Below are positions 23,821 to 36,930 of a stretch of 36,930 nucleotides of DNA, piece after piece (position 1 is the stretch's first letter; the number at the start of each line of letters is the position of its first letter). The notes under the pieces were generated by a model that was given only the letters and a program-made list of their open reading frames with translations, did no database searches and was not told the DNA's origin. Made by a program: the position numbers and the translations under genes. Source of the stretch: Dehalococcoidia bacterium (GTDB lineage: Bacteria; Chloroflexota; Dehalococcoidia; DSTF01; JACRBR01); assembly GCA_041494685.1 (NCBI GenBank), contig JBGQBE010000029.1, positions 1-36,930 of the forward strand, written 5' to 3'.

Positions 23821-26748
23821 TCAGGCCTCCAGCCGGAAGCCCTGCCCGCGCAGCGTGATGATGTACGACCGCTCGCCACCGGCCTGCACGATGCGCTCCC
23901 GGACGCGACGGACGAGCGCGTCAAGCGCCTCTTCGGAGACGCCCTCGGCGTGGGCGTCGGGCCAGACGTGCAGCACTAGCTCCTCGCGGCCCACAACTTT
24001 GCCGGCGCGCTCGTACAGGTACAGCAGCAACCGGAACTGCTCGTTCGAAAGCGGCGGCCGCGCCTCGACGCCCTTCACGTACACCCGCCGCGTCTCAGTG
24101 TCGATGCGCAGCACCGGAGGCCCCTTGGGCGCGCTCACAGGCTCCTGCGGCGCCAGCGGCTCCGCACGGGGCGCTGCGGGCACGTCCGGAGGCGGCTCCG
24201 CTTGCTGAACGGCCGCTTCCGGGCGCCTCGCCCGCCGCCGGCGGTACAGCGTGTGGCCACCGCCCGCGACCGCGAGCGCCAGCGCCGCCGGCACGCCGAT
24301 CGCCACCGCGAGCAGCGGCAAGCCGCCGCCGTCGCCGCTCGCCGGCGCGGGCGCCTCGACGGGCGTCGGCACGGCCGTCGAGGCGGTGACGGTGTCGCCC
24401 TGCACGGTAACGGAGAGCGGCGCGGACGCGAGGGCGCCCACTGCGGCGGTAGCGGTGTAGTGGCCGGGGCCGGCGGCTGTCAGCTGCGCGCCCGCCAGGC
24501 CGTCGACCGTCGACACGGTGGCGGCGCTCGACGCGCCATCGTCCTTCACCAGCCGGAACGAGACGGACGTGCCGTCAGCAACCGGGTTACCGTTGCGATC
24601 GAGGATCGGCCCGGCGACGACGCCCAGCACACGCGTGTCGCGCACGGCGTCGGACGGCTGCCCGAAGATCTGCACAGCGATCGACCGCGCCGGGTCCGGC
24701 TGTGTAGCGTCGGCCACGTCGTAGAAGATGCCGCTCACGCTGACGGGCGGGTGGCCCTTCGGCGTGACATCGCCGAAGAGCGCACGAAAGCCCGCGTCCA
24801 CCGCCGCGTTGGTCTTGCTATAGACCGCGAAGTACGCGGAGAGCTTGCTCACCTCGGTCGAGTCCAGGTGGTACGGCACGTTGTACGCGATGCCGATCAA
24901 GTTCTTGTTGCGCAGATCGACCGGCGGCGCGTCAAGGAAGCGTTTCACCGCGCCCGACGCGGGGCGCGCGTCCGGGTTGTACTCGGTCAGCGCGAAGATC
25001 AGCCACGCGGCGTCCCCGACGGCCTTCGCGGTCGCTGCGTTCGCGGGGTCTGCGGGCTTCGACAGCCACGCGTCGAGCTCGCCGAAGCTGATCGTGCCGA
25101 CGTCCTCCGGTTTCAGGCGCGCCTTGCCGGCGGGCCCGTAGAGCGCGAGCAGTTCGTTTTGTAGGTCGAGCTTCGACTTCACGCGGTAGGGGTAGCAGTC
25201 GTCCCAACACTCGACGATCAGGACCTTCTCGGGCGAGAGCGGGCCGCGCGGCAACCGCGCGCGCAGATCGGCGACGGTCGGCGGCTGCAGCAGCGTCAGC
25301 GCATCCTCCGCCAGCGCGCGCATCTCGTCGCCACCCTGCCCCGCCGCGGCGCTCGCCGCGGCCGGATCGACGGTCGCCTGGCGCAACGCGAGCTGCGGGT
25401 AGAGCTTCAGCTTCGCGGCGAGCACGCGCCGCACGGCATCGTCGGCGCGGCGGCGGAAATCGGGGTCGGCGGCGTACTGTTGGCGCATGTAGGTGATGCT
25501 GTCCTCGATCACCGGGAGCTGGTTGTCCTTCCAGCCGCGGTGGGCGGGATCCTTGTAGAATTCGACCAGCGGCAGCAGGTCGCTGCCGGCCATCAGGGCG
25601 TCGTGCACGACGGTGCGGTTGGGGAACTCGGCCGCGCCCTGCTCCTGCGCGTACCACTTCTTGATCGCGGGCACGCCCAACGAATCGCTCATCACCAGGT
25701 GGTCCGCACGCCAGCCCGCGAACTCGGGCAGCGCGAGCAGCGTCGTGAACGCCGCCGCGTCGAGCGAGAGTGGGCCCGTGAACGCCGCGCTGCCGCCCGG
25801 CACGAAATTCCGATAGCGGATGTGCGACACCATCATCCCGTCGGCCGTGCCGCCGACGTCCGCAGGGTCGCTGCTGTCGACGCGGGCGAAGGGCGCCAGA
25901 TCCGACGCGCGGAGCTGGTCGAGCGACTTATTGACGGTCGGCACTTCGTTGTCCGTCGAGCGGTCGCTGCCGCCGTGGCCAGGAAAGTGCTTCGCGACGG
26001 TGAGCATGCGCCCGCCGCTCCCATCGTGCACGCCGGCGATGAACGCCCGGCCCAACTCGCCAACCCACGCCGGGTCGCCGCCGAACGAGCGGATGCCGAT
26101 ATCGCCGTTGCCACCGGAGCGCGGGTTCTCGAGCACGTCCACGACCGGCCCCAGCAGCATGTTGATGCCGGCCGCCGACAGTTCCTTGCCGACGATGGCG
26201 CCCGTCGCGCGCGCGTGCGCTTTGCTCCACGTCGCGCCGATGGTCATGTTGTTCGGGATGGCGGTGTAGCCGTTGGTGACGTTGCTGAAGGGGAAGAGGT
26301 CGCCCTCGTTGTCGGTGGCGACGAGGAGCGGCAGGTAGTACTCGCCGCCCCCGGCATCGGTGCGGCGCGTGGCGTCGAATGCGCGTTGTTGCAGGCCGTT
26401 CGTCAGTGCAGCGATCTGCGCCGGCGTATCGCCTCGGTTCACGACGTTGCCGTTGCTGGCGGTGACCAGCACCGCGCCGACCTTGTAGTCGCGGATAAGC
26501 GCTGCGACATCGGACACGTCGGACACGTCGGTGCCGACGAAGTTCACCATCACGAGCTGGCCAACGCGCTCGTCCACGCTGAGCGACGCCATCACGCGAT
26601 CGAGGAACGCGTCGCCGGGTGTCTGCGCCGCCGCGTGCGGCTGCGGCGCCGCCCGCAGGGCGACGCAGGCAGCCGCGGCGATGGCGGCAACGCGAAGCCA
26701 GCCACCGCGGCGGCGCCCTGCACTCGGCGTCATGCGCGGTCGTGCCAT
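23821..26748 (-). CDS. Fusion protein: signal peptide, GH3 (NagZ-like) domains, Ig-like domain, TM helix, OmpR/PhoB-type winged-helix DNA-binding domain
   Basis: ERVGQLVMV, ATDNEG, GINMLLGPVVDV, IGIRSFG, KHFPGHG, MMVSH, MSDSL, ALMAGSD; DRNGNPVADGT.VSF; TM followed by RRRRARR; LSNEQFRLL.YLY...GKVV.REEL...VW...LVRRVRERI...YIITLRGQGFRL. ATG 26748 lies 7 nt after CATAAT. Confidence 0.9.
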   Translation of the reverse strand: MARPRMTPSAGRRRGGWLRVAAIAAAACVALRAAPQPHAAAQTPGDAFLDRVMASLSVDERVGQLVMVNFVGTDVSDVSDVAALIRDYKVGAVLVTASNGNVVNRGDTPAQIAALTNGLQQRAFDATRRTDAGGGEYYLPLLVATDNEGDLFPFSNVTNGYTAIPNNMTIGATWSKAHARATGAIVGKELSAAGINMLLGPVVDVLENPRSGGNGDIGIRSFGGDPAWVGELGRAFIAGVHDGSGGRMLTVAKHFPGHGGSDRSTDNEVPTVNKSLDQLRASDLAPFARVDSSDPADVGGTADGMMVSHIRYRNFVPGGSAAFTGPLSLDAAAFTTLLALPEFAGWRADHLVMSDSLGVPAIKKWYAQEQGAAEFPNRTVVHDALMAGSDLLPLVEFYKDPAHRGWKDNQLPVIEDSITYMRQQYAADPDFRRRADDAVRRVLAAKLKLYPQLALRQATVDPAAASAAAGQGGDEMRALAEDALTLLQPPTVADLRARLPRGPLSPEKVLIVECWDDCYPYRVKSKLDLQNELLALYGPAGKARLKPEDVGTISFGELDAWLSKPADPANAATAKAVGDAAWLIFALTEYNPDARPASGAVKRFLDAPPVDLRNKNLIGIAYNVPYHLDSTEVSKLSAYFAVYSKTNAAVDAGFRALFGDVTPKGHPPVSVSGIFYDVADATQPDPARSIAVQIFGQPSDAVRDTRVLGVVAGPILDRNGNPVADGTSVSFRLVKDDGASSAATVSTVDGLAGAQLTAAGPGHYTATAAVGALASAPLSVTVQGDTVTASTAVPTPVEAPAPASGDGGGLPLLAVAIGVPAALALAVAGGGHTLYRRRRARRPEAAVQQAEPPPDVPAAPRAEPLAPQEPVSAPKGPPVLRIDTETRRVYVKGVEARPPLSNEQFRLLLYLYERAGKVVGREELVLHVWPDAHAEGVSEEALDALVRRVRERIVQAGGERSYIITLRGQGFRLEA

Positions 26749-26842
26749 GTACGAGATTATGCGGCTTCTCAATCGCTATCGATAGCTGCGTCTCATGCGC
26801 CGATCACGAAGGTCCGCGCCCAAGCCAGAGGACACCGACGGC

Positions 26843-29672: not shown

Positions 29673-30134
29673 ATGCCGAATACTGTACCTGCCCAGCTTC
29701 TCGCGGCCATCAAGGGACGCAAGTGGACCTCCGTCGCCCGGTTGTTCGCCAATCCGGTTGATTTCCAGGCGTGGACCCCGACCGGCCACTGGGTGGCCGA
29801 GGACGGCGGCACGGTCGCGAAGATCATCGAAGTCTGGTACACGCCGGGCGCCGGCTCGACCGTGACGTTCAGCAACGAAACCTCGGCCGCGCGCGGCGCC
29901 GCCATGCTGGAATACGAAATGACGTGGAAAGTGCCGCCGGACGACCAGCCGCGCGTGCTGCGTCAGACGTTCCTGATGACTGTGAAAGGCGAAAAGATCA
30001 CCCAGGCCCGCGTGTACTGCGCCGGACTCCACACGGAGTTCCCGGGCGTGGACCTGGAGAAGCAGCGCCGCTCCAAGGGGCTGGCGCTGGGCAAGGGCCC
30101 CGCACCCAAAGCCGTAGCCGCCAAGGCCAGCTGA
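29673..30134 (+). CDS. NTF2/SnoaL-like fold protein
   Basis: N-terminal helix pattern (LLAAIKGRKW..VARLFA..VDF) and C-terminal strands (RQTFLMTVKGEKITQARVYC). Confidence 0.72.
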   Translation: MPNTVPAQLLAAIKGRKWTSVARLFANPVDFQAWTPTGHWVAEDGGTVAKIIEVWYTPGAGSTVTFSNETSAARGAAMLEYEMTWKVPPDDQPRVLRQTFLMTVKGEKITQARVYCAGLHTEFPGVDLEKQRRSKGLALGKGPAPKAVAAKAS

Positions 30135-30157: not shown

Positions 30158-30191
30158 CGAACATGCCCTGCCTGGAGGCAGGGCATGTTCG
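30158..30191. terminator. Long hairpin between convergent genes (bidirectional terminator)
   Basis: CGAACATGCCCTGCC-TGGA-GGCAGGGCATGTTCG, perfect 15-bp stem. Confidence 0.8.
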
Positions 30192-30211
30192 ATCCTTGCC
30201 GATAGCGGGGG

Positions 30212-30298
30212 TTAGCCGAAGCCCCACGGCGCGACAGCCACGAAGGCAGTCGCAAGCACAGTGAAGGCCGCCAGGGCAGTTGGGATGAAACGGGACAT
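30212..30298 (-). CDS. Unannotated 28-aa hydrophobic peptide MSRFIPTALAAFTVLATAFVAVAPWGFG (candidate signalling-peptide precursor)
   Basis: GGAGGT 5 nt before ATG 30298, TAA at 30214-30212, terminator hairpin 20 nt downstream, signal-peptide-like layout. Confidence 0.78.
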   Translation of the reverse strand: MSRFIPTALAAFTVLATAFVAVAPWGFG

Positions 30299-30462
30299 CA
30301 GACACCTCCAAGACTCAACACTCTCTGCTGAGGGAGGTATCGGCAGGGATTACCCGTACTGAAGGGTCAGGGGACACCTAATGAGAACATTGCCCCTCGC
30401 ACGGCGACCACACGCACCGGCGCGGACGTGCACCCTGACTCCGAGGCGCGGGATGTGCGGGG

Positions 30463-33400
30463 TCAGCCCCGGCTGGTGGCTTCGCGGTAGAGCTCGTTGA
30501 GTCGTTCTGTGGGCTCTTCGCCAAGCTCATCCTTGAGCAGCTGGCGGAAACGCCGGTAGTGCCGGGCGGCACCCGTCGCGTCGTTCAGGGAGAGATAGCA
30601 ACGCATGACGCCGTAGGCGGCCGCTTCGCTGTACGGGTCCACCGCGTCGAGCACCTTGAAGAGCGTCAACGCTTCCTCGAAGACGCCTTCGCGCAGCTTG
30701 CGAGCCGCCAGTTCGTTCACCGCTTCGATGTAGCGGTCTTCAAGCTCGCGGCGCAGAGGCTCCACCCACTCGCTGTAGGCGGATGCGAGGTACGCGCCCT
30801 TGTAGAGCGCGACCGCTTCCTCCAGCTTCGCCACTCGGACCGCGTCGTCCCGGGCGACCTCCGCGGCGAGCATCGCCTGGTTGAACGCGTCTACGTCGGA
30901 CGAGTACGCGCCCCGCGGGTTCAGCGCGTAGCCGCCATCGGCTCCGCGCACGACGCACTCGTGGAAGAGCGCGCGGCGGAGCCGGTAGAGGCTGGAGTGG
31001 AAGTTGCTGTTGCACTTCGACTCCGGCAGCTCCGGCCACAGCGCGGCGAAGATCTCCTCCTTGCCGACGGACTCACCGCGTGCGAGCAGGAAGAAGAACA
31101 TCTCCTTGCTCTTCTCGCTGCGCCACTCCAGGTCGGACACCTGCCGGTCGCCGACCAGCACGCTCCCGCGCCCCAGGGCGAAGGCGCGTACCGGCGGCAG
31201 CATGTCCGGCGGCGCATCGCGCATGGCACGGCCGCTCGGTGCGGCTTCTGGCCTTCGGCCGCCTTCCGCCAGATCCCTTAGCAGCCCTTCGGCCACGTGA
31301 CGAACTGCGGCATACTCCAGCATCTCCGTCGCCCGCACGGCATACGGGCGCAAGAAGCGGCGATATCCCAGCTGCTCGCAGAGGCGGGTAACGTTCTCCA
31401 ACTCCGCCATCGCCTTCCGCGGCTGGTGACCATCGAACAGCGCCCGCGCGCGGAGGAACGCCGCGATCGCCATCTGGTGCCGGTTGTCCGACGGCTCGAG
31501 CTGGCGCGCCGCGAGGTCGGCTGCCTTCTGGGCGGCGATCGCGTCACCGCGATCGAGGGCAATCTGGGCGTCGACCAACGCGTGCTGCGCGATCCTCGCC
31601 GGCGGATCGGACGGTTTCGGCGCCAGGCTCTTCGCGATCTGCGCGGCCAGTTCGCCCTCTCCGAGGCTGAGCCGCGTGAGCGCGAGGCCGTAACCAATCT
31701 CCGTTATCAGGTACGCTTGTTGTAGGCCGGCGCTGATGGGCTCGACCTCCTGGTAGAGCGCCAGGCTCTCTTCGAAGCGGCCCATGCACCGGTACGTCTC
31801 GGCCATGCCGGCCGTCATATAGGCCTCCTGCTCCACGTTCCCCGTTCCGCGCATGAGCCGCACGCCGCGCTCGTACACCTGCAACGCCTGCTCGAACTCG
31901 CCGATCTCATAGTGGACCATACCCGTGTTGTTGAGCGTCAGGCCGAGATCGAACGTGTTCCCCGCGCGTTCGAACGCCGACTGCGCACGCTGCAGCGCGC
32001 CCAACGCCAGCATCGGGTCGCCGCGCATGCTGTAGCACTGCGCCAATGAGTTGCAGGCGTTGCCGATGCCTTGCAGATCACCCACCTGCTCCAGCATGCG
32101 GCGCGCTTCCTCCAGCTCATCGATCGCCGCGTCGAAGTCGCCGCTCAGGGTGTGTGTGACGCCGATGTTGCGCAGCGCCTGACCCATTAGCGCCGCGTCA
32201 TCGTCGCCTTCCGCCTCCAGCAACGCGCGCGCCTGGCTGAACGCGGCCAACGCCTCCCCGGCGAAGCCCTTGCGACGTAGCAGTTCGCCGCGCACGAAGA
32301 GCGCCCTCACCATCGCTTGCACGTCGCGATCCTGTCTCAGCGCCCGGATCGCGTCGTCGACGCGACGGAGCCCGTCGTCGAGTTCGAGCAGCTTCAACGA
32401 GGCGCGGGCTCGCCACACCTGCAAGTCCGGGCGGGCCGCCTGTGCGGCGGCGGGGAGGCGGTCGATCCACTCGGCCAGTCCACGCGCCTGTCCCTGCTGT
32501 ACCAGCCGCGGCGAGATCTCCTCCAGCGTCTCAGCCGCCTGCGTCCACTCCTCCAGTTCGAAGAGCAGCTCGACCGCCTCGTTCAACATGCCGAAGCGGG
32601 TGAGTGTCTCGGCGGCCTCGCGGCCGGCCCGGGCGAAGCCGTCCGGGTCGTCGGTGCGGAACTGCTGCATGAGCAGCGTGCGCATCAGTTGGTGGCAGCG
32701 GTACATGGGCGGTTCTTCGGCGTGCTGCGTGACGAAGAGGACGCGCGTCGCCGCTTCCTTCAGCAAGCGCTCGCTATCGCGGCGGCCGGTGACGTCGTTG
32801 CAGAGCGCCGGCGTCCACACGGCGAGCAGCGAGATGCTGCGCAGGAACGCGCGCAACTCCGGCGGCACCATGTCCAACGCTTCGCCGTGCACGTAGTCCG
32901 CCAGCGAGAGGCCGACGTTCGGCCCGGCGATGCTGCCGGCTCCGCCGGCGGCTTCCTCGCCCGGCACGCCGGTGCGCCCGGTGCGCGCGTCGCCCGCGCC
33001 GAGGATCAGCGCAGCCGCCCAACCCTCCGTGCGCTCGAACAGCGACTCCGCCTCGTCGTCCGATACCGCGCGGCCAAGCGACCCGAGCAGTTCCCGCACC
33101 TCGCGCGGCGTGAACGCCAGATCCGCCGCGCCGATGCTCATGACCTCGCGCCGCGCGAGCAGGCGCGAGAGCGACGGGATGGGCGGACGGGTGCGCGAGG
33201 TCATGACGACGTGCAGGTTCTCGGGCGCGCGCTCCAGCAGGTAGCCCAGCGTCTCCATCACCTCGGCCGAACCCTCGACGGTGTGTACGTCGTCCAGCAC
33301 GAGGACCACGTAGTCGTCCTGCTCGGCGATGGCGTTGATCAGCACAGTGGCGACCGTGCGCGGCTGCCAGAAGCGCTCGTCGCCGAGCGGCACGACGGTA

Positions 33401-33696
33401 TCGAAGCGGGTGCCGATGGCCGATGCGAGCGCGCGCGCGAACGCGGGAAGTTCGGCGTCCCAGGGGTCGAGCGAGAGCCAGACGGCGGCGAAGTCGGACG
33501 TCTGGTGCCAGTCGACCACGAGCGTGGTCTTGCCGTAGCCGGCGGGCGCGGCGATCAACGTGCCCTTGCCGCCGACGGCCGCATCGATGAACGCGTTGAG
33601 ACGCGGTCGCCGGACGACGTCGGGCCGCCGCCGCGGGACGGCGAACTTGGACGTCGCGACGCCCCCGATGCCCCCGGACCGCGGCGCGTTCTCCAT
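30463..33696 (-). CDS. MalT-like STAND ATPase - TPR - winged helix - BTAD transcriptional regulator
   Basis: SKFAVP..R..VVRRPRL, APAGYGKTT, LVLDDVH, TEGWAAAL, YRCHQLMR; multiple TPRs (ALRNIG, CNSLA, TLNNTG); WRSEKSKEMFFFL...LWPE...LYRLRRAL; DVDAF...LYKGAYL...DPYSE...MRCY...LKDELGEEP. TATAAT lies 8 nt before ATG. Confidence 0.92.
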   Translation of the reverse strand: MENAPRSGGIGGVATSKFAVPRRRPDVVRRPRLNAFIDAAVGGKGTLIAAPAGYGKTTLVVDWHQTSDFAAVWLSLDPWDAELPAFARALASAIGTRFDTVVPLGDERFWQPRTVATVLINAIAEQDDYVVLVLDDVHTVEGSAEVMETLGYLLERAPENLHVVMTSRTRPPIPSLSRLLARREVMSIGAADLAFTPREVRELLGSLGRAVSDDEAESLFERTEGWAAALILGAGDARTGRTGVPGEEAAGGAGSIAGPNVGLSLADYVHGEALDMVPPELRAFLRSISLLAVWTPALCNDVTGRRDSERLLKEAATRVLFVTQHAEEPPMYRCHQLMRTLLMQQFRTDDPDGFARAGREAAETLTRFGMLNEAVELLFELEEWTQAAETLEEISPRLVQQGQARGLAEWIDRLPAAAQAARPDLQVWRARASLKLLELDDGLRRVDDAIRALRQDRDVQAMVRALFVRGELLRRKGFAGEALAAFSQARALLEAEGDDDAALMGQALRNIGVTHTLSGDFDAAIDELEEARRMLEQVGDLQGIGNACNSLAQCYSMRGDPMLALGALQRAQSAFERAGNTFDLGLTLNNTGMVHYEIGEFEQALQVYERGVRLMRGTGNVEQEAYMTAGMAETYRCMGRFEESLALYQEVEPISAGLQQAYLITEIGYGLALTRLSLGEGELAAQIAKSLAPKPSDPPARIAQHALVDAQIALDRGDAIAAQKAADLAARQLEPSDNRHQMAIAAFLRARALFDGHQPRKAMAELENVTRLCEQLGYRRFLRPYAVRATEMLEYAAVRHVAEGLLRDLAEGGRRPEAAPSGRAMRDAPPDMLPPVRAFALGRGSVLVGDRQVSDLEWRSEKSKEMFFFLLARGESVGKEEIFAALWPELPESKCNSNFHSSLYRLRRALFHECVVRGADGGYALNPRGAYSSDVDAFNQAMLAAEVARDDAVRVAKLEEAVALYKGAYLASAYSEWVEPLRRELEDRYIEAVNELAARKLREGVFEEALTLFKVLDAVDPYSEAAAYGVMRCYLSLNDATGAARHYRRFRQLLKDELGEEPTERLNELYREATSRG

Positions 33697-33803: not shown

Positions 33804-35120
33804 CTACGCCGACACGTCCTTCACTTCGGGCTCTTCCGGCGCGGCGTCTTCGTCCGCGCTCTGCCCGCTTCGCGTGAGCAGCAGCGGGCGCTGGCGGTTG
33901 CGAATGGTGTCGCCGCTGACGATGCACTTCTTGATGTCCGGCCGCGACGGGATGTCGTACATCACTTCCATCAGCGTGTCTTCCAGCACGGTGCGGAGGC
34001 CGCGGGCGCCCGTCTTGTGTCGGATCGCCTCCTCGGCGCAGGCGCTCAGGCCGTCCTCCGTGAAGCTCAGCTCCACGCTGTCCAGGCTGAAGAAGCGTTG
34101 GAACTGGCGGGCGAGCGCGTTCTTCGGCTCCGTCAGGATGCGCACCAGCGCCGGCACGTCCAGCGATTCCAGGCTGACCACCATCGGTAGGCGGCCGACG
34201 AACTCCGGGATGAGGCCATAGGTCAGCAGGTCGTCGTGGGTGACATGCTTCATCAGCTCGTCGGTGCGCTTCTGCTGGTCCATCAGCTTGTACTCCGCGC
34301 CGAAGCCCAGCGAGCGCTTGTCGCGGCCCAGGCGCCGCTCTGTGACCTTGTCCAGCCCCTCGAAGGCGCCGCCGCAGATGAACAGGATGTTCGCGGTGTT
34401 GATCTGGATAAAGTCCTGGTGCGGGTGCTTGCGGCCGCCCTGCGGCGGCACGTTCGCCGTCGTGCCCTCGATGATCTTAAGCAGCGCCTGCTGGACGCCC
34501 TCGCCCGATACGTCACGGGTGATGGACGGGTTGTCGGACTTGCGGGCGATCTTGTCGATCTCGTCGATGTAGACGATGCCGCGCTCGGCACGCTGCACGT
34601 CGAAGTCGGCGGACTGGATCAGGTGCAGCAGGATGTTCTCGACGTCCTCGCCGACGTAGCCAGCCTCGGTCAGCGCCGTCGCATCGGCGATCGTGAAGGG
34701 CACGTCGAGGATCTTCGCCAGCGTGCGCGCCAGCAGCGTCTTGCCGGAGCCTGTCGGACCGAGCAGCAGGATGTTGCTCTTCTCCAACTCGACATCCGAG
34801 TTCTGCCCGGCCGACGCGGTGATGCGCTTGTAGTGGTTGTAGACGGCGACCGAGAGGACCTTCTTGGCCTGCTCCTGGCCGACTACGTACTCGCTGAGGT
34901 TGTCGAAGATCTGCTTGGGCGGCGGCGTGCGCTGGCCGGCGCCGACCTTGGTCTTCGCCGGTCCCGCCGCTTCCTCGTCGATGATCTCGCGGCACAGCTC
35001 GACGCACTCGTCGCAGATGTACACCGCGCCCGGGCCCGCGATCAGGCGCTTCACCTGATCCTGGTTCTTTCCGCAGAACGAGCAGTGGTACTGGACGCGC
35101 GTCTGACGGCTGTTAGCCAT
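33804..35120 (-). CDS. clpX: ATP-dependent Clp protease ATP-binding subunit ClpX
   Basis: CSFCGK...[50 protein letters not shown] loop and GARGLR. Confidence 0.98.
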
Positions 35121-35180
35121 GCTCAGTGTCCCCTAGCGACTCGCATCCCCATTGCGCGCGGGCGATGCTTGATCATGCCG

Positions 35181-35210
35181 ATTCTACGCCAGCCATTGCC
35201 ACTTTGTCAG
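35181..35210 (-). promoter_or_regulatory. Internal promoter for clpX
   Basis: CTGACA, 18 nt, TAGAAT in the 205-nt clpP-clpX gap. The -35 lies within a TGTCA-gct-TGACA inverted repeat. Confidence 0.55.
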
Positions 35211-35325
35211 CTTGACACCGGCCGTGAACCCCGCGCGCGGGCGTCCTACAAGGTTTTCGGGAATCTGGAAGCCCGTCTGAAGTGTAAAACGGCTTCCGGC
35301 CCCCGATATAACCGATGCTTGGGTG

Positions 35326-35940
35326 CTACCCCTCCCTGCGCGCCAGGATCTCGTCGATCATCCCGTACGCCTTGGCCTGCTCCGGGTTCATGTAGAAGTC
35401 GCGGTCGAAGTCGCGGCGGATCCGCTCATCGTCCTGCCCGGTGTGCTTGACGAGAATACCACGGATGATGTCGTTCTCTCGCAAGATCTCGCGGGCCTGG
35501 ATCTCGATGTCGGCCGCCTGACCGCGCGCGCCGCCGAGCGCCTGGTGCATGTGGACCGTGGCGTTCGGCATGCAGTAGCGCTTGCCCGGCGTCCCCGCGC
35601 ACATCAGCACAGTGCCCATGCTGGCGGTCATACCAACGGCGTAGGTCGCGACGTCCGGCCGGACGAGCTGCATGGTGTCGTAGATCGCAAGACCGGCGGT
35701 GATCTGGCCGCCAGGCGAGTGGATGTAGAGGTTGATGTCCTTCTCCGGGTCCTCGCGCTCCAGATAGAGGAGCTGCGCGATGATCAGGTTGGCGATCTGA
35801 TCGTCGATCCCGGTGCCCAGGAAGATGATGCGCTCGCGCAGCAGCAGCGAGTAGATGTCGAACGCACGCTCGCCGCGGGCGCTGGTCTCAATGACGGACG
35901 GGATAATCATGTCGTGTGCCCTCTCCATGCTGGTGTCCAT
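35326..35940 (-). CDS. clpP: ATP-dependent Clp protease proteolytic subunit ClpP
   Basis: [22 protein letters not shown] (Ser), MHQ (His), RDFY (Asp). Alternative start 35910. Confidence 0.97.
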
Positions 35941-35942
35941 GC

Positions 35943-36930
35943 CTATTCCTCGGTGGATTCCGTCGGCACGGGTTCTGCCTCTGCGGCCTCGGCCGCGGCG
36001 GCCGCCGCGGCCTTCGCGCGCGTCTTCTTCTTCGGCTTCTCGGGGGCGGCCTCCGCGCCACCATCCTGCGTCGCGATCTCAATGAGGCGGGTCAGCGTCT
36101 TCCGCGTCAACAGGTTGCGGCGGATCGTCGCGCGCCCGTCCTCGCTGGCGAAGAGCTGGCGCAGCTGCGCCGACTGTACGCCCGCCGAAGCGGTCATCGT
36201 GTCGATCTCCGCCTCCACATCCTCCGGCGTCACTTCGATATTCTCGGCTTCGGAGACCTCCGACAGCACCAGTGAACGCCTTAGGCGAACGTCCGCGATC
36301 GGCTGAAGCTCGGCGCGCACTTCCTCCTCGGTCTTGCCGATGCCCGCCAGGTAGCGATCCAGGCCCTCTCCCCGCTCGATATGGCCGGCCTGGTCGTGCA
36401 ACAGCCGGTCAATCTCGGACTCCAGCATTACCGGCGGGAACTCGACCGTCGCCTGTTCGACGAGCTGGTTGAGGATCTCGTCGTGGTAGCGATTGTCGCG
36501 CTGCTCCTCTTCGGACTTCTGGATGTCCTCGCGGATGCGCTGGCGCAGTGCGTCCACCGTCTCAAAGCCCTCACCCACCTGCTTGGTGAACTCATCGTCG
36601 AGGTCGGGCAGCACCTCTTCTTTCGTCTCGAGGAGGGTGACTGTGAAGTGCGCCTGCTTGCCGGCGAACTTCTCACTATTGACCGTTTCGGGCACGGCCA
36701 GGTCGAATTCGAGCGCATCGCGTTTCTTGTGGCCGAGCACCTGTTCTTCAAAGCCAGGGAAGATCACGTCGCGCTCTTCCACCAACTGCACTTCGGCTTC
36801 CTGCTGCTGGACCAGGATCTCGTCCTCGACCGTCGCGGCGATCTCCATGCGCACGACATCGCCCCAGGCGATCTCCCGCTCGATCGGCTCCAGCGTGGCG
36901 ACACGGCGGCGCAGGATCTTCAGCGTCTCG
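35943..36930 (-). CDS. tig: Trigger factor, 5'-truncated by the window edge
   Basis: The frame stays open to the window end ([26 protein letters not shown]...). [19 protein letters not shown] and LPDLDDEF. tig-clpP-clpX order. Confidence 0.95.

Follow-up and report, generated by a model that had tools for sequence, protein, structure and literature searches.

A tiny predicted membrane-peptide gene, a DUF5317 protein and a STAND-TPR-SARP regulator make up a gene module of Chloroflexota

Does the 28-codon open reading frame (ORF) that lies directly behind a large regulator gene in a Dehalococcoidia genome encode a signal for this regulator, or does it serve another partner? The window, which is the whole 36,930-nt stretch of DNA analysed here (contig JBGQBE010000029.1, assembly GCA_041494685.1), carries both genes, and a sequence-only reading of it had proposed them as a candidate quorum-sensing-like pair of receptor and exported propeptide with the layout of the RRNPP systems of Firmicutes. 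We found that the ORF is a real gene and that the regulator, the peptide(s) and a DUF5317 protein are an old, undescribed gene module of Chloroflexota. As to what the peptide does, we give an even chance to the reading that it is an N-in/C-out membrane partner of DUF5317 in a regulator-linked signalling module. The features on which the question turns are the following.

30463..33696, minus strand: regulator, 1077 aa (from Pfam, NCBIfam and orthologues)
30212..30298 (stop included), minus strand: 28-aa peptide gene, predicted to encode a tiny single-pass membrane peptide (from conservation and codon statistics)
30304..30309, minus strand: Shine-Dalgarno sequence GGAGGT, 5 nt 5' of the ATG

The ORF at 30298..30212 (−) translates as MSRFIPTALAAFTVLATAFVAVAPWGFG, in which a basic head M-S-R-F-I-P is followed by a hydrophobic stretch of ~19 residues and a tail A-P-W-G-F-G. 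The regulator lies upstream of it on the same strand, at a distance of 164 nt. The peptide gene is present as a single copy in the window's genome and its product matched 0 families in Pfam (E up to 10) and in NCBIfam (E up to 1). When 36 genomes of the family were searched with a family profile built from four copies, exactly one homologous ORF was found in 29 of them, always of 28–29 codons and always with a GGAGG-type ribosome-binding site; the family consensus is M-[STA]-R-[FY]-[IL]-P...A-P-W-x-W-G, with 0–1 extra residue. Over the 28 intact copies pN/pS was 0.50 in frame, in comparison with 1.06 and 1.62 in the other two frames, and the third codon positions showed the highest entropy. 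Both the head M-x-R-[FY]-[IL]-P and the tail P-W-x-W-G are near-invariant across ~19 genera. The hidden small gene suspected in the sequence-only reading is therefore genuine, as judged from its conservation in 29 of 36 genomes, the conserved ribosome-binding site and the in-frame pN/pS. One unpublished genome, G021, is counted in these figures (29/36 and the 28 copies) and also in the 4/20 and 6/29 counts, the promoter alignment and the regulator tree described below, and no conclusion rests on it alone.

Two copies in the family are irregular. That of G007 is split between two contig ends, and that of G041:C1 (L048, ~1501-1620) has a frameshift after codon 16 with the remainder in another frame; as the latter genome is a single contig that is 64% complete, the frameshift could be an assembly error or a pseudogene. 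Against 1.84 billion predicted proteins the family profile retrieved only 14 cluster representatives at E <= 0.001.

The peptide gene is enclosed by conserved DNA on its 5' side and by a hairpin on its 3' side.

30324..30366, minus strand: conserved promoter-region block, CCCTTCAGT..GGG....CCCTGCCGATACCTCC..CAGCAGA, aligned in 28 family genomes
30159..30190, minus strand: hairpin closing the peptide cassette (perfect inverted repeat, RNA fold)
29673..30134, plus strand: weakly SnoaL-like gene converging on the hairpin (SnoaL_2, E 7e-4, below the Pfam cut-off)

About 70 nt 5' of the ATG are conserved in both contexts in which the gene occurs, behind the regulator or before DUF5317, with the pattern cTAgG...CCCTCAAGT..GGG....CCCTGCCGAT..CTCC..TAGCAGA, and each homologous cassette ends in its own GC-rich hairpin 3' of the stop codon. 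The cassette thus appears to be self-contained from promoter to terminator, with the conserved block as its putative promoter. A weight matrix of the 43 nt used for a regulon search found only one site above 12 bits in the 3.29-Mb genome, namely the peptide's own promoter. The short core GCCGATAC occurs 167 times in the genome, in comparison with ~130 copies by a rough estimate of chance, and is not clearly over-represented. An element GCCGATAC(T/C) also recurs just 5' of DUF5317 and 3' of the peptide hairpin in L028, L030, L042, L044, L047 and L049.

The window's hairpin, at 30190-30159, is an inverted repeat with 15-nt arms, which in the folded form makes a 14-bp stem with a 4-nt loop; its predicted folding energy is −36 kcal/mol (z = −5.3), and 0 of 200 shuffled sequences equalled it. 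The ORF, the GGAGGT site, the 164-nt gap and this hairpin were all found where the sequence-only reading had placed them. A scan for consensus terminators made no call at the hairpin because no U-tract comes after it; even so, it is probably a terminator shared by both converging genes.

Regulator orthologues with 65–77% identity were found in 19 other genomes of the family, and a small ORF lies 3' of the regulator in 4 of these 20 regulator loci, the window's own included. Counted from the peptide gene, the regulator precedes it in 6 of the 29 family loci (G000, which is the window's genome, G010, G048, G050, G015 and G021). In 22 of the remaining 23 loci a DUF5317 gene (PF17248) follows the peptide gene on the same strand, and the 23rd locus stops at a contig break; nuoC lies divergently upstream of the peptide gene in 22 of these 23. 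The constant companion of the peptide is hence DUF5317, a gene absent from the sequence-only reading, rather than the regulator named there as its partner, and pairs of peptide and DUF5317 also exist without the regulator.

Genomes with the regulator context do have a DUF5317 gene, located elsewhere and without a peptide gene. In the window's genome it lies outside the window, on contig G000:C32, with a score of 50.8 bits in comparison with the gathering cut-off of 25, and ~1.7 kb from nuoC. Because DUF5317 is still near nuoC, its site is unchanged and it is the peptide cassette that moved. Between nuoC and DUF5317 on this contig (L142, 4315-5620), where relatives hold the peptide cassette, there are ORFs without a Pfam match. 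A quick and provisional regulator tree shows the DUF5317 context in every basal lineage of the family. It groups three of the genomes with the regulator context into a single clade and places the window's genome as the sister of one that has the peptide gene before DUF5317 (SH-aLRT 96).

Outside the family, all three genes are found together. In G029, which belongs to another family, a regulator that is 34% identical and has the same domains is followed after 206 nt by a 28-aa ORF, MKRLLPIALSALSFLAVVFAGTAPWAWS (tail ..APWAWS), and after a further 77 nt by DUF5317 (E 7e-23, 81.7 bits). In G008 the regulator is 38% identical and is followed after 110 nt by a 27-aa ORF (tail ..APWAW) and by DUF5317 at G008:C52:15563-15982. 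A scan with the DUF5317 alignment, taking one genome per species, gave 80 loci, among them MAGs of Anaerolineae and Caldilineaceae, and 54 of these are not of the window's family type. A regulator homologue lies 5' of DUF5317 on the same strand in 35 of the 42 non-family loci that have at least 3.8 kb upstream; these homologues share 23–38% identity with the window's regulator and most of them match over nearly the full length. With a strict filter for small ORFs (a ribosome-binding site, 20–60 codons and a strongly hydrophobic 15-residue stretch), the gap between regulator and DUF5317 holds small ORFs in 32 of 39 loci (45 ORFs), in comparison with 0 of 39 on the reverse strand and 0.8 in shuffled sequences; with a looser filter, the count is 36 of 39. 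The pairing of regulator and peptide proposed in the sequence-only reading is therefore ancient and highly non-random across Chloroflexota, but adjacency is kept in only 6 of the 29 genomes of the window's own family, the two genes being apart in 23.

The same bias is seen when the regulator is left out of consideration. A small hydrophobic ORF with a ribosome-binding site lies 5' of DUF5317 on the same strand in 52 of the 70 loci with at least 1200 nt upstream, in comparison with 3 of 70 on the opposite strand and 1 of 73 and 3 of 73 in downstream windows. The 18 misses are family genomes without an upstream peptide, weaker ribosome-binding sites, a frameshifted copy and four loci with the peptide further upstream. 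Proteins with GGDEF and HD_5 domains adjoin DUF5317 in 13 of the 54 non-family loci and PAS-kinase-receiver hybrids in 14 of 54, which suggests that DUF5317 is generally tied to signal transduction. Four loci outside Chloroflexota, from Actinomycetes, Candidatus Sysuimicrobiota and Candidatus Tepidifontimicrobium, have no STAND regulator, and there the order is a tiny peptide gene (..SGAGARWS, ..ANGKWG), a GGDEF-HD gene and DUF5317.

What kind of protein is the regulator? Its Pfam domains are AAA_16/AAA_22 at 33-163, TPR_MalT/TPR_12 at 469-780 and BTAD at 934-1072 (E 5.2e-18), and against NCBIfam it matches MalT over 15-539 (E 2.4e-61) and the AfsR SARP over 869-1070 (E 1.9e-17). These matches make it a MalT-like STAND NTPase/TPR sensor fused to a C-terminal SARP module, and the C-terminus has the OmpR-type winged helix together with BTAD that define a SARP; the STAND ATPase-TPR-wHTH-BTAD make-up read earlier from the letters alone is borne out. 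Since the score is far below the equivalog cut-off for AfsR, the regulator is only a domain-level relative of that protein. It is not a full-length MalT either, as the MalT match reaches 207.8 bits against an equivalog cut-off of 537 and covers residues 15-539 only. An RRNPP receptor consists of an HTH or phosphatase domain plus TPR in ~300–450 aa, in contrast to the 1077 aa and the AAA/STAND, TPR_MalT and BTAD domains found here, and no RRNPP-family match was obtained for the regulator in Pfam or NCBIfam.

The peptides of the relatives come in three forms. Form (i), next to DUF5317, has 27–32 residues with Trp 1–3 residues from the end (..APWxWG, ..AAALWWR, ..APWAW), and the window's peptide aligns with it. 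Form (ii), right after the regulator, has 24–43 residues, ends in A-[AG]-Q-S-[APV]-[FL]-[FILV] and often occurs as two tandem copies. Form (iii), the Anaerolineae type, has 33–51 residues; its ..G-A-G-A-P junction is conserved, and its Gly-rich tail varies. Common to all three are a basic head, a single hydrophobic helix and a junction of the type small-x-small-Pro. Neither form (ii) nor form (iii) has a significant match in the window's genome, the best E values being 0.27 and 0.13. Tandem copies number three in L093 and two in L100, L112, L113, L127 and L130. In L093 (3817-4666) the three genes encode 44-aa peptides (..FVLSAGAPGATGH), have their own ribosome-binding sites and lie in units of ~358 nt between the regulator and DUF5317. 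Cysteines, mostly in pairs, are present in Anaerolineae-type tails at L105 1304, L109 524, L126 385 and L129 4798 (..GCLGCLASIGW, ..GCYYC, ..HYCGGC), a hint that an exposed tail may be cyclised through a disulfide or in some other way.

Upstream of the first peptide gene, exact 7-mer direct repeats with 10–12-nt spacing were found in 19 of 32 loci, in comparison with 0.58 in shuffled sequences and 0–3 loci at other spacings. The repeated words differ by lineage (GGCGAGA, TGGTGA, CCCTCGTCC, TTTGAGG and GTGAGAA). The SARP domain of AfsR binds a pair of 11-bp direct repeats that overlap the −35 element of the adjoining small gene afsS, and it activates this gene (PMC10936776); the 10–12-nt repeats have the layout to which SARP domains bind. 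In lineages that have both form (i) and form (ii), the promoter of form (i) is a consensus TTGACA-17-TATCAAT and it is form (ii) that carries the repeats. Neither the promoter of the window's peptide gene nor the family consensus shows a clear direct repeat at 11 nt, the closest approach being a match of 6–7 of 9 bases.

Is the peptide cleaved and released? The sequence-only reading had pointed to an A-V-A signal-peptidase-like site, and both A-V-A and a basic head are indeed there, but the next residue (+1) is Pro in the window and in the family peptides compared, and the hydrophobic stretch has the length of an anchor. Proline at +1 blocks bacterial LepB. Signal peptides do not have Pro at +1, and replacing Ala by Pro at this position prevents cleavage (PMC11579918). 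Because Pro follows A-V-A, classical signal-peptidase cleavage is unlikely, and together with the hydrophobic stretch of ~19 residues this makes the window's peptide look like a signal anchor.

The term DUF5317 was absent from the literature searched, and the Pfam family is without an assigned function. An alignment of 52 DUF5317 sequences has 13 invariant columns (a Gly, an Asn, A-N-G-G-L-M-P, an Asp, and the S, G and D of S-x-G-D), and a Lys is near-invariant. In the AlphaFold model, which is confident (mean pLDDT 86.5), helices 1 to 3 are followed by a short beta loop, which holds the invariant residues, and then by helix 4. Arg-rich segments precede the first helix, link the second to the third and follow the last. 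Given these Arg-rich segments and the positive-inside rule, the loop would lie outside the cell, on the same side as the tail of the peptide. Foldseek with this model against the PDB found nothing at E <= 0.001, a wide VIA-align search found generic helix bundles only (best Z 8.8), neither of them revealed a recognisable protease fold, and a search of the ESM Atlas returned DUF5317 clusters only. The loop folded alone had a pLDDT of 54. A likeness of the loop to Ser/Lys peptidases was considered and set aside, since it comes down to short motifs. When the DUF5317 of L087 (178 aa) and its 32-aa peptide were taken as stand-ins for the window's pair, the complex prediction gave no verdict either way (score 0.02).

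According to the reading that we favour, the head of the peptide would be in the cytoplasm and its Trp-rich tail A-P-W-x-W-G at the outer face, and the peptide would remain membrane-bound, serving DUF5317 as a partner or ligand. Peptide and DUF5317 would then jointly be the membrane arm of a signalling unit, with the STAND-TPR-SARP regulator as the cytoplasmic arm in Chloroflexota and a GGDEF/HD protein in this role in other phyla. The analysis shows the reality of the gene and its conservation, the statistics of gene order, the repeats in relatives and the fold model of DUF5317; we infer the topology, the physical partnership, the direction of regulation and the lack of signal peptidase I cleavage. 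Such constancy of head and tail over ~19 genera is what one would sooner expect of a structural membrane partner than of a pheromone that diversifies.

Several observations weigh against this reading. Neither neighbour of the peptide gene is kept in all family genomes, and since the cassette has changed place one or more times, linkage is not under strict selection. The loci that we counted are related and not independent, so that the counts overstate the statistical weight. In the relatives the tails are variable after a conserved [AG]-x-[AS]-P junction, some with Cys pairs, and peptide genes are duplicated in tandem, and even in the family the x of P-W-x-W-G is H, G and S in three species of one genus, which makes it a possible specificity position. 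A gene for an SBP_bac_5 (OppA-type) protein lies directly 3' of DUF5317 in 11 of the 54 non-family loci, and where the locus reaches far enough this gene is in most cases followed by genes for OppB/C-type permeases, as judged from Pfam. In addition, 13 sequencing runs cover all or part of the region and none is recorded as RNA.

A broader possibility, which we consider doubtful, is that tiny peptides and DUF5317 form a cross-phylum peptide-signalling device, in which DUF5317 would be a new kind of membrane enzyme or receptor that cuts at [AG]-x-[AS]|P on the outer side of the membrane or senses the tail, with interchangeable outputs (STAND-TPR-SARP, GGDEF/HD and possibly a hybrid kinase). In some lineages of Chloroflexota, an Opp-type importer and duplicated, autoinduced precursor genes would be part of it. 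If true, this would amount to peptide quorum sensing outside Bacillota with a STAND protein as the receptor.

The strong rival of the reading that we favour, though less probable than it, is pheromone-type signalling, an extension of the sequence-only idea, in which DUF5317 would cut the precursor at [AG]-x-[AS]|P on the outer side of the membrane or export it, and the tail would be re-imported by an Opp-type transporter and bound by the TPR sensor, switching ATP-dependent oligomerisation and SARP-driven transcription that includes the peptide genes. The linkage of regulator and peptide kept at phylum scale speaks for such a circuit, as do the conserved junction with variable tails, the tandem genes, the SBP_bac_5 and OppB/C-type genes after DUF5317 in 11 loci, which accord with RRNPP-type logic, and the fact that the regulator tree separates the lineages in which the cassette lies behind the regulator; the SARP-box-like repeats before peptide genes would supply the positive feedback typical of quorum sensing. 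The invariant Ser and Asp and the near-invariant Lys in the outward loop modelled for DUF5317 could, speculatively, be a catalytic site, and the peptide resembles the SHPs and the Trp-containing ComS tails of Rgg/ComR systems. On the other hand, the peptide of the window belongs to the form found alongside DUF5317 and has no clear promoter repeats, its genome has no second peptide type, and no Opp genes adjoin the regulator or DUF5317 there. The tail is almost invariant over the ~19 genera and the cytoplasmic head is conserved too, the pair also occurs with GGDEF-HD proteins that lack a TPR sensor, DUF5317 has no recognisable protease fold, and SBP_bac_5 proteins bind non-peptide ligands too.

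Conservation of the cytoplasmic head would be accounted for by a feedback of the MgrB or AfsS kind, in which the regulator switches on the peptide, the head M-x-R-[FY]-[IL]-P binds the TPR domain and sequesters or releases the regulator, and DUF5317 modulates this. TPR domains often bind short linear motifs and MalT is restrained by partner proteins; the activation of an adjoining small gene by AfsR (PMC10936776) and the repeats 5' of peptide genes in relatives would fit as well. We nevertheless consider this unlikely, as the head has only ~6 residues, the pair of peptide and DUF5317 exists without the regulator and the window's promoter has no visible repeats.

It is very improbable that the peptide acts as a bacteriocin or toxin of the small hydrophobic kind, to which DUF5317 would confer immunity, with a SARP-type activator in control of the two. 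SARP regulators classically control antibiotic gene clusters (PMC10972967), and the peptide genes are small, hydrophobic and sometimes duplicated; yet there is one copy per genome in a gene order largely conserved across the family, the gene is under purifying selection, the cassette lies beside the core genes nuoC and clpX, the window contains no transporter or modification genes, and c-di-GMP enzymes and kinases as neighbours point to signalling. The many spurious ORFs of this GC-rich window might have suggested a chance ORF in a GC-rich intergenic region, which is refuted for practical purposes by the conservation, the codon-position pattern, the conserved ribosome-binding site and the strand-biased small ORFs near DUF5317.

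How does the module compare with known systems? Among the closest are Rgg/SHP and ComR/ComS, the RRNPP systems of streptococci, which mature their peptides by a membrane enzyme rather than by Sec signal peptidase and take them up by Opp-type transporters. They likewise have a very small hydrophobic peptide gene beside a cytoplasmic TPR-type transcription factor, and their peptides are built in a similar way, with a hydrophobic body between the basic head and a short C-terminal end that is often aromatic. The putative receptor here is a STAND NTPase-TPR-SARP protein of ~1,080 aa, whereas theirs has HTH and TPR in ~300 aa; and the present system belongs to Chloroflexota and not to Bacillota, has a dedicated DUF5317 and a near-invariant tail, and has lost adjacency in most family genomes, with the peptide beside the regulator in 32 of 39 deeper loci.

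AfsR-AfsS of Streptomyces shares the set of SARP, NOD and TPR domains (PMC10936776), and its repeats are comparable to those before the peptide genes in 19 of 32 relatives. The two regulators differ in domain order, which is NOD-TPR-SARP in the window's protein and the reverse, SARP-NOD-TPR, in AfsR. AfsS, of ~63 aa, is soluble, unlike the membrane-type peptide of this module; AfsR-AfsS is also not known to have a DUF5317-like partner, and clear repeats are missing from the window's peptide promoter. With MalT of E. coli the regulator shares the N-terminal half and the TPR_MalT region, but the C-terminal LuxR-type DNA-binding domain of MalT is replaced by the SARP module. In agr (AgrB/AgrD) and MgrB-PhoQ, too, a tiny peptide gene goes together with a polytopic membrane protein (~190 aa) and a protein for the signalling output; in comparison with agr, DUF5317 has no sequence or fold similarity to AgrB, and the output proteins differ.

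Chloroflexota are abundant in sediments and soils and mostly uncultured, and to our knowledge no peptide-based signalling system is known in this phylum, for which the module is a testable candidate. It gives a first functional handle on DUF5317, a Pfam family for which no structural relative was found, by showing it accompanied by a tiny peptide gene and a signalling protein, and it points to a class of ligands, or to a partner, for a large STAND/TPR/SARP regulator. It also adds a family of genes of ~25–50 codons that are largely missed by gene callers. If the peptide is indeed a membrane partner of DUF5317, it would be a new example of a tiny protein as the obligate companion of a signalling membrane protein.

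In the window the regulator is preceded on its 5' side by genes on the same strand for trigger factor, a probable clpP and clpX (33804-36854, −), and its homologues outside the family have no adjoining clpX, clpP or SnoaL-like gene. Further along, an ORF of 983 aa at 23821-26772 (−) combines a glycoside hydrolase family 3 domain and Big_1 with a C-terminal OmpR-type Trans_reg_C domain (E 1.6e-15), which is an unusual fusion of an enzyme and a regulator.

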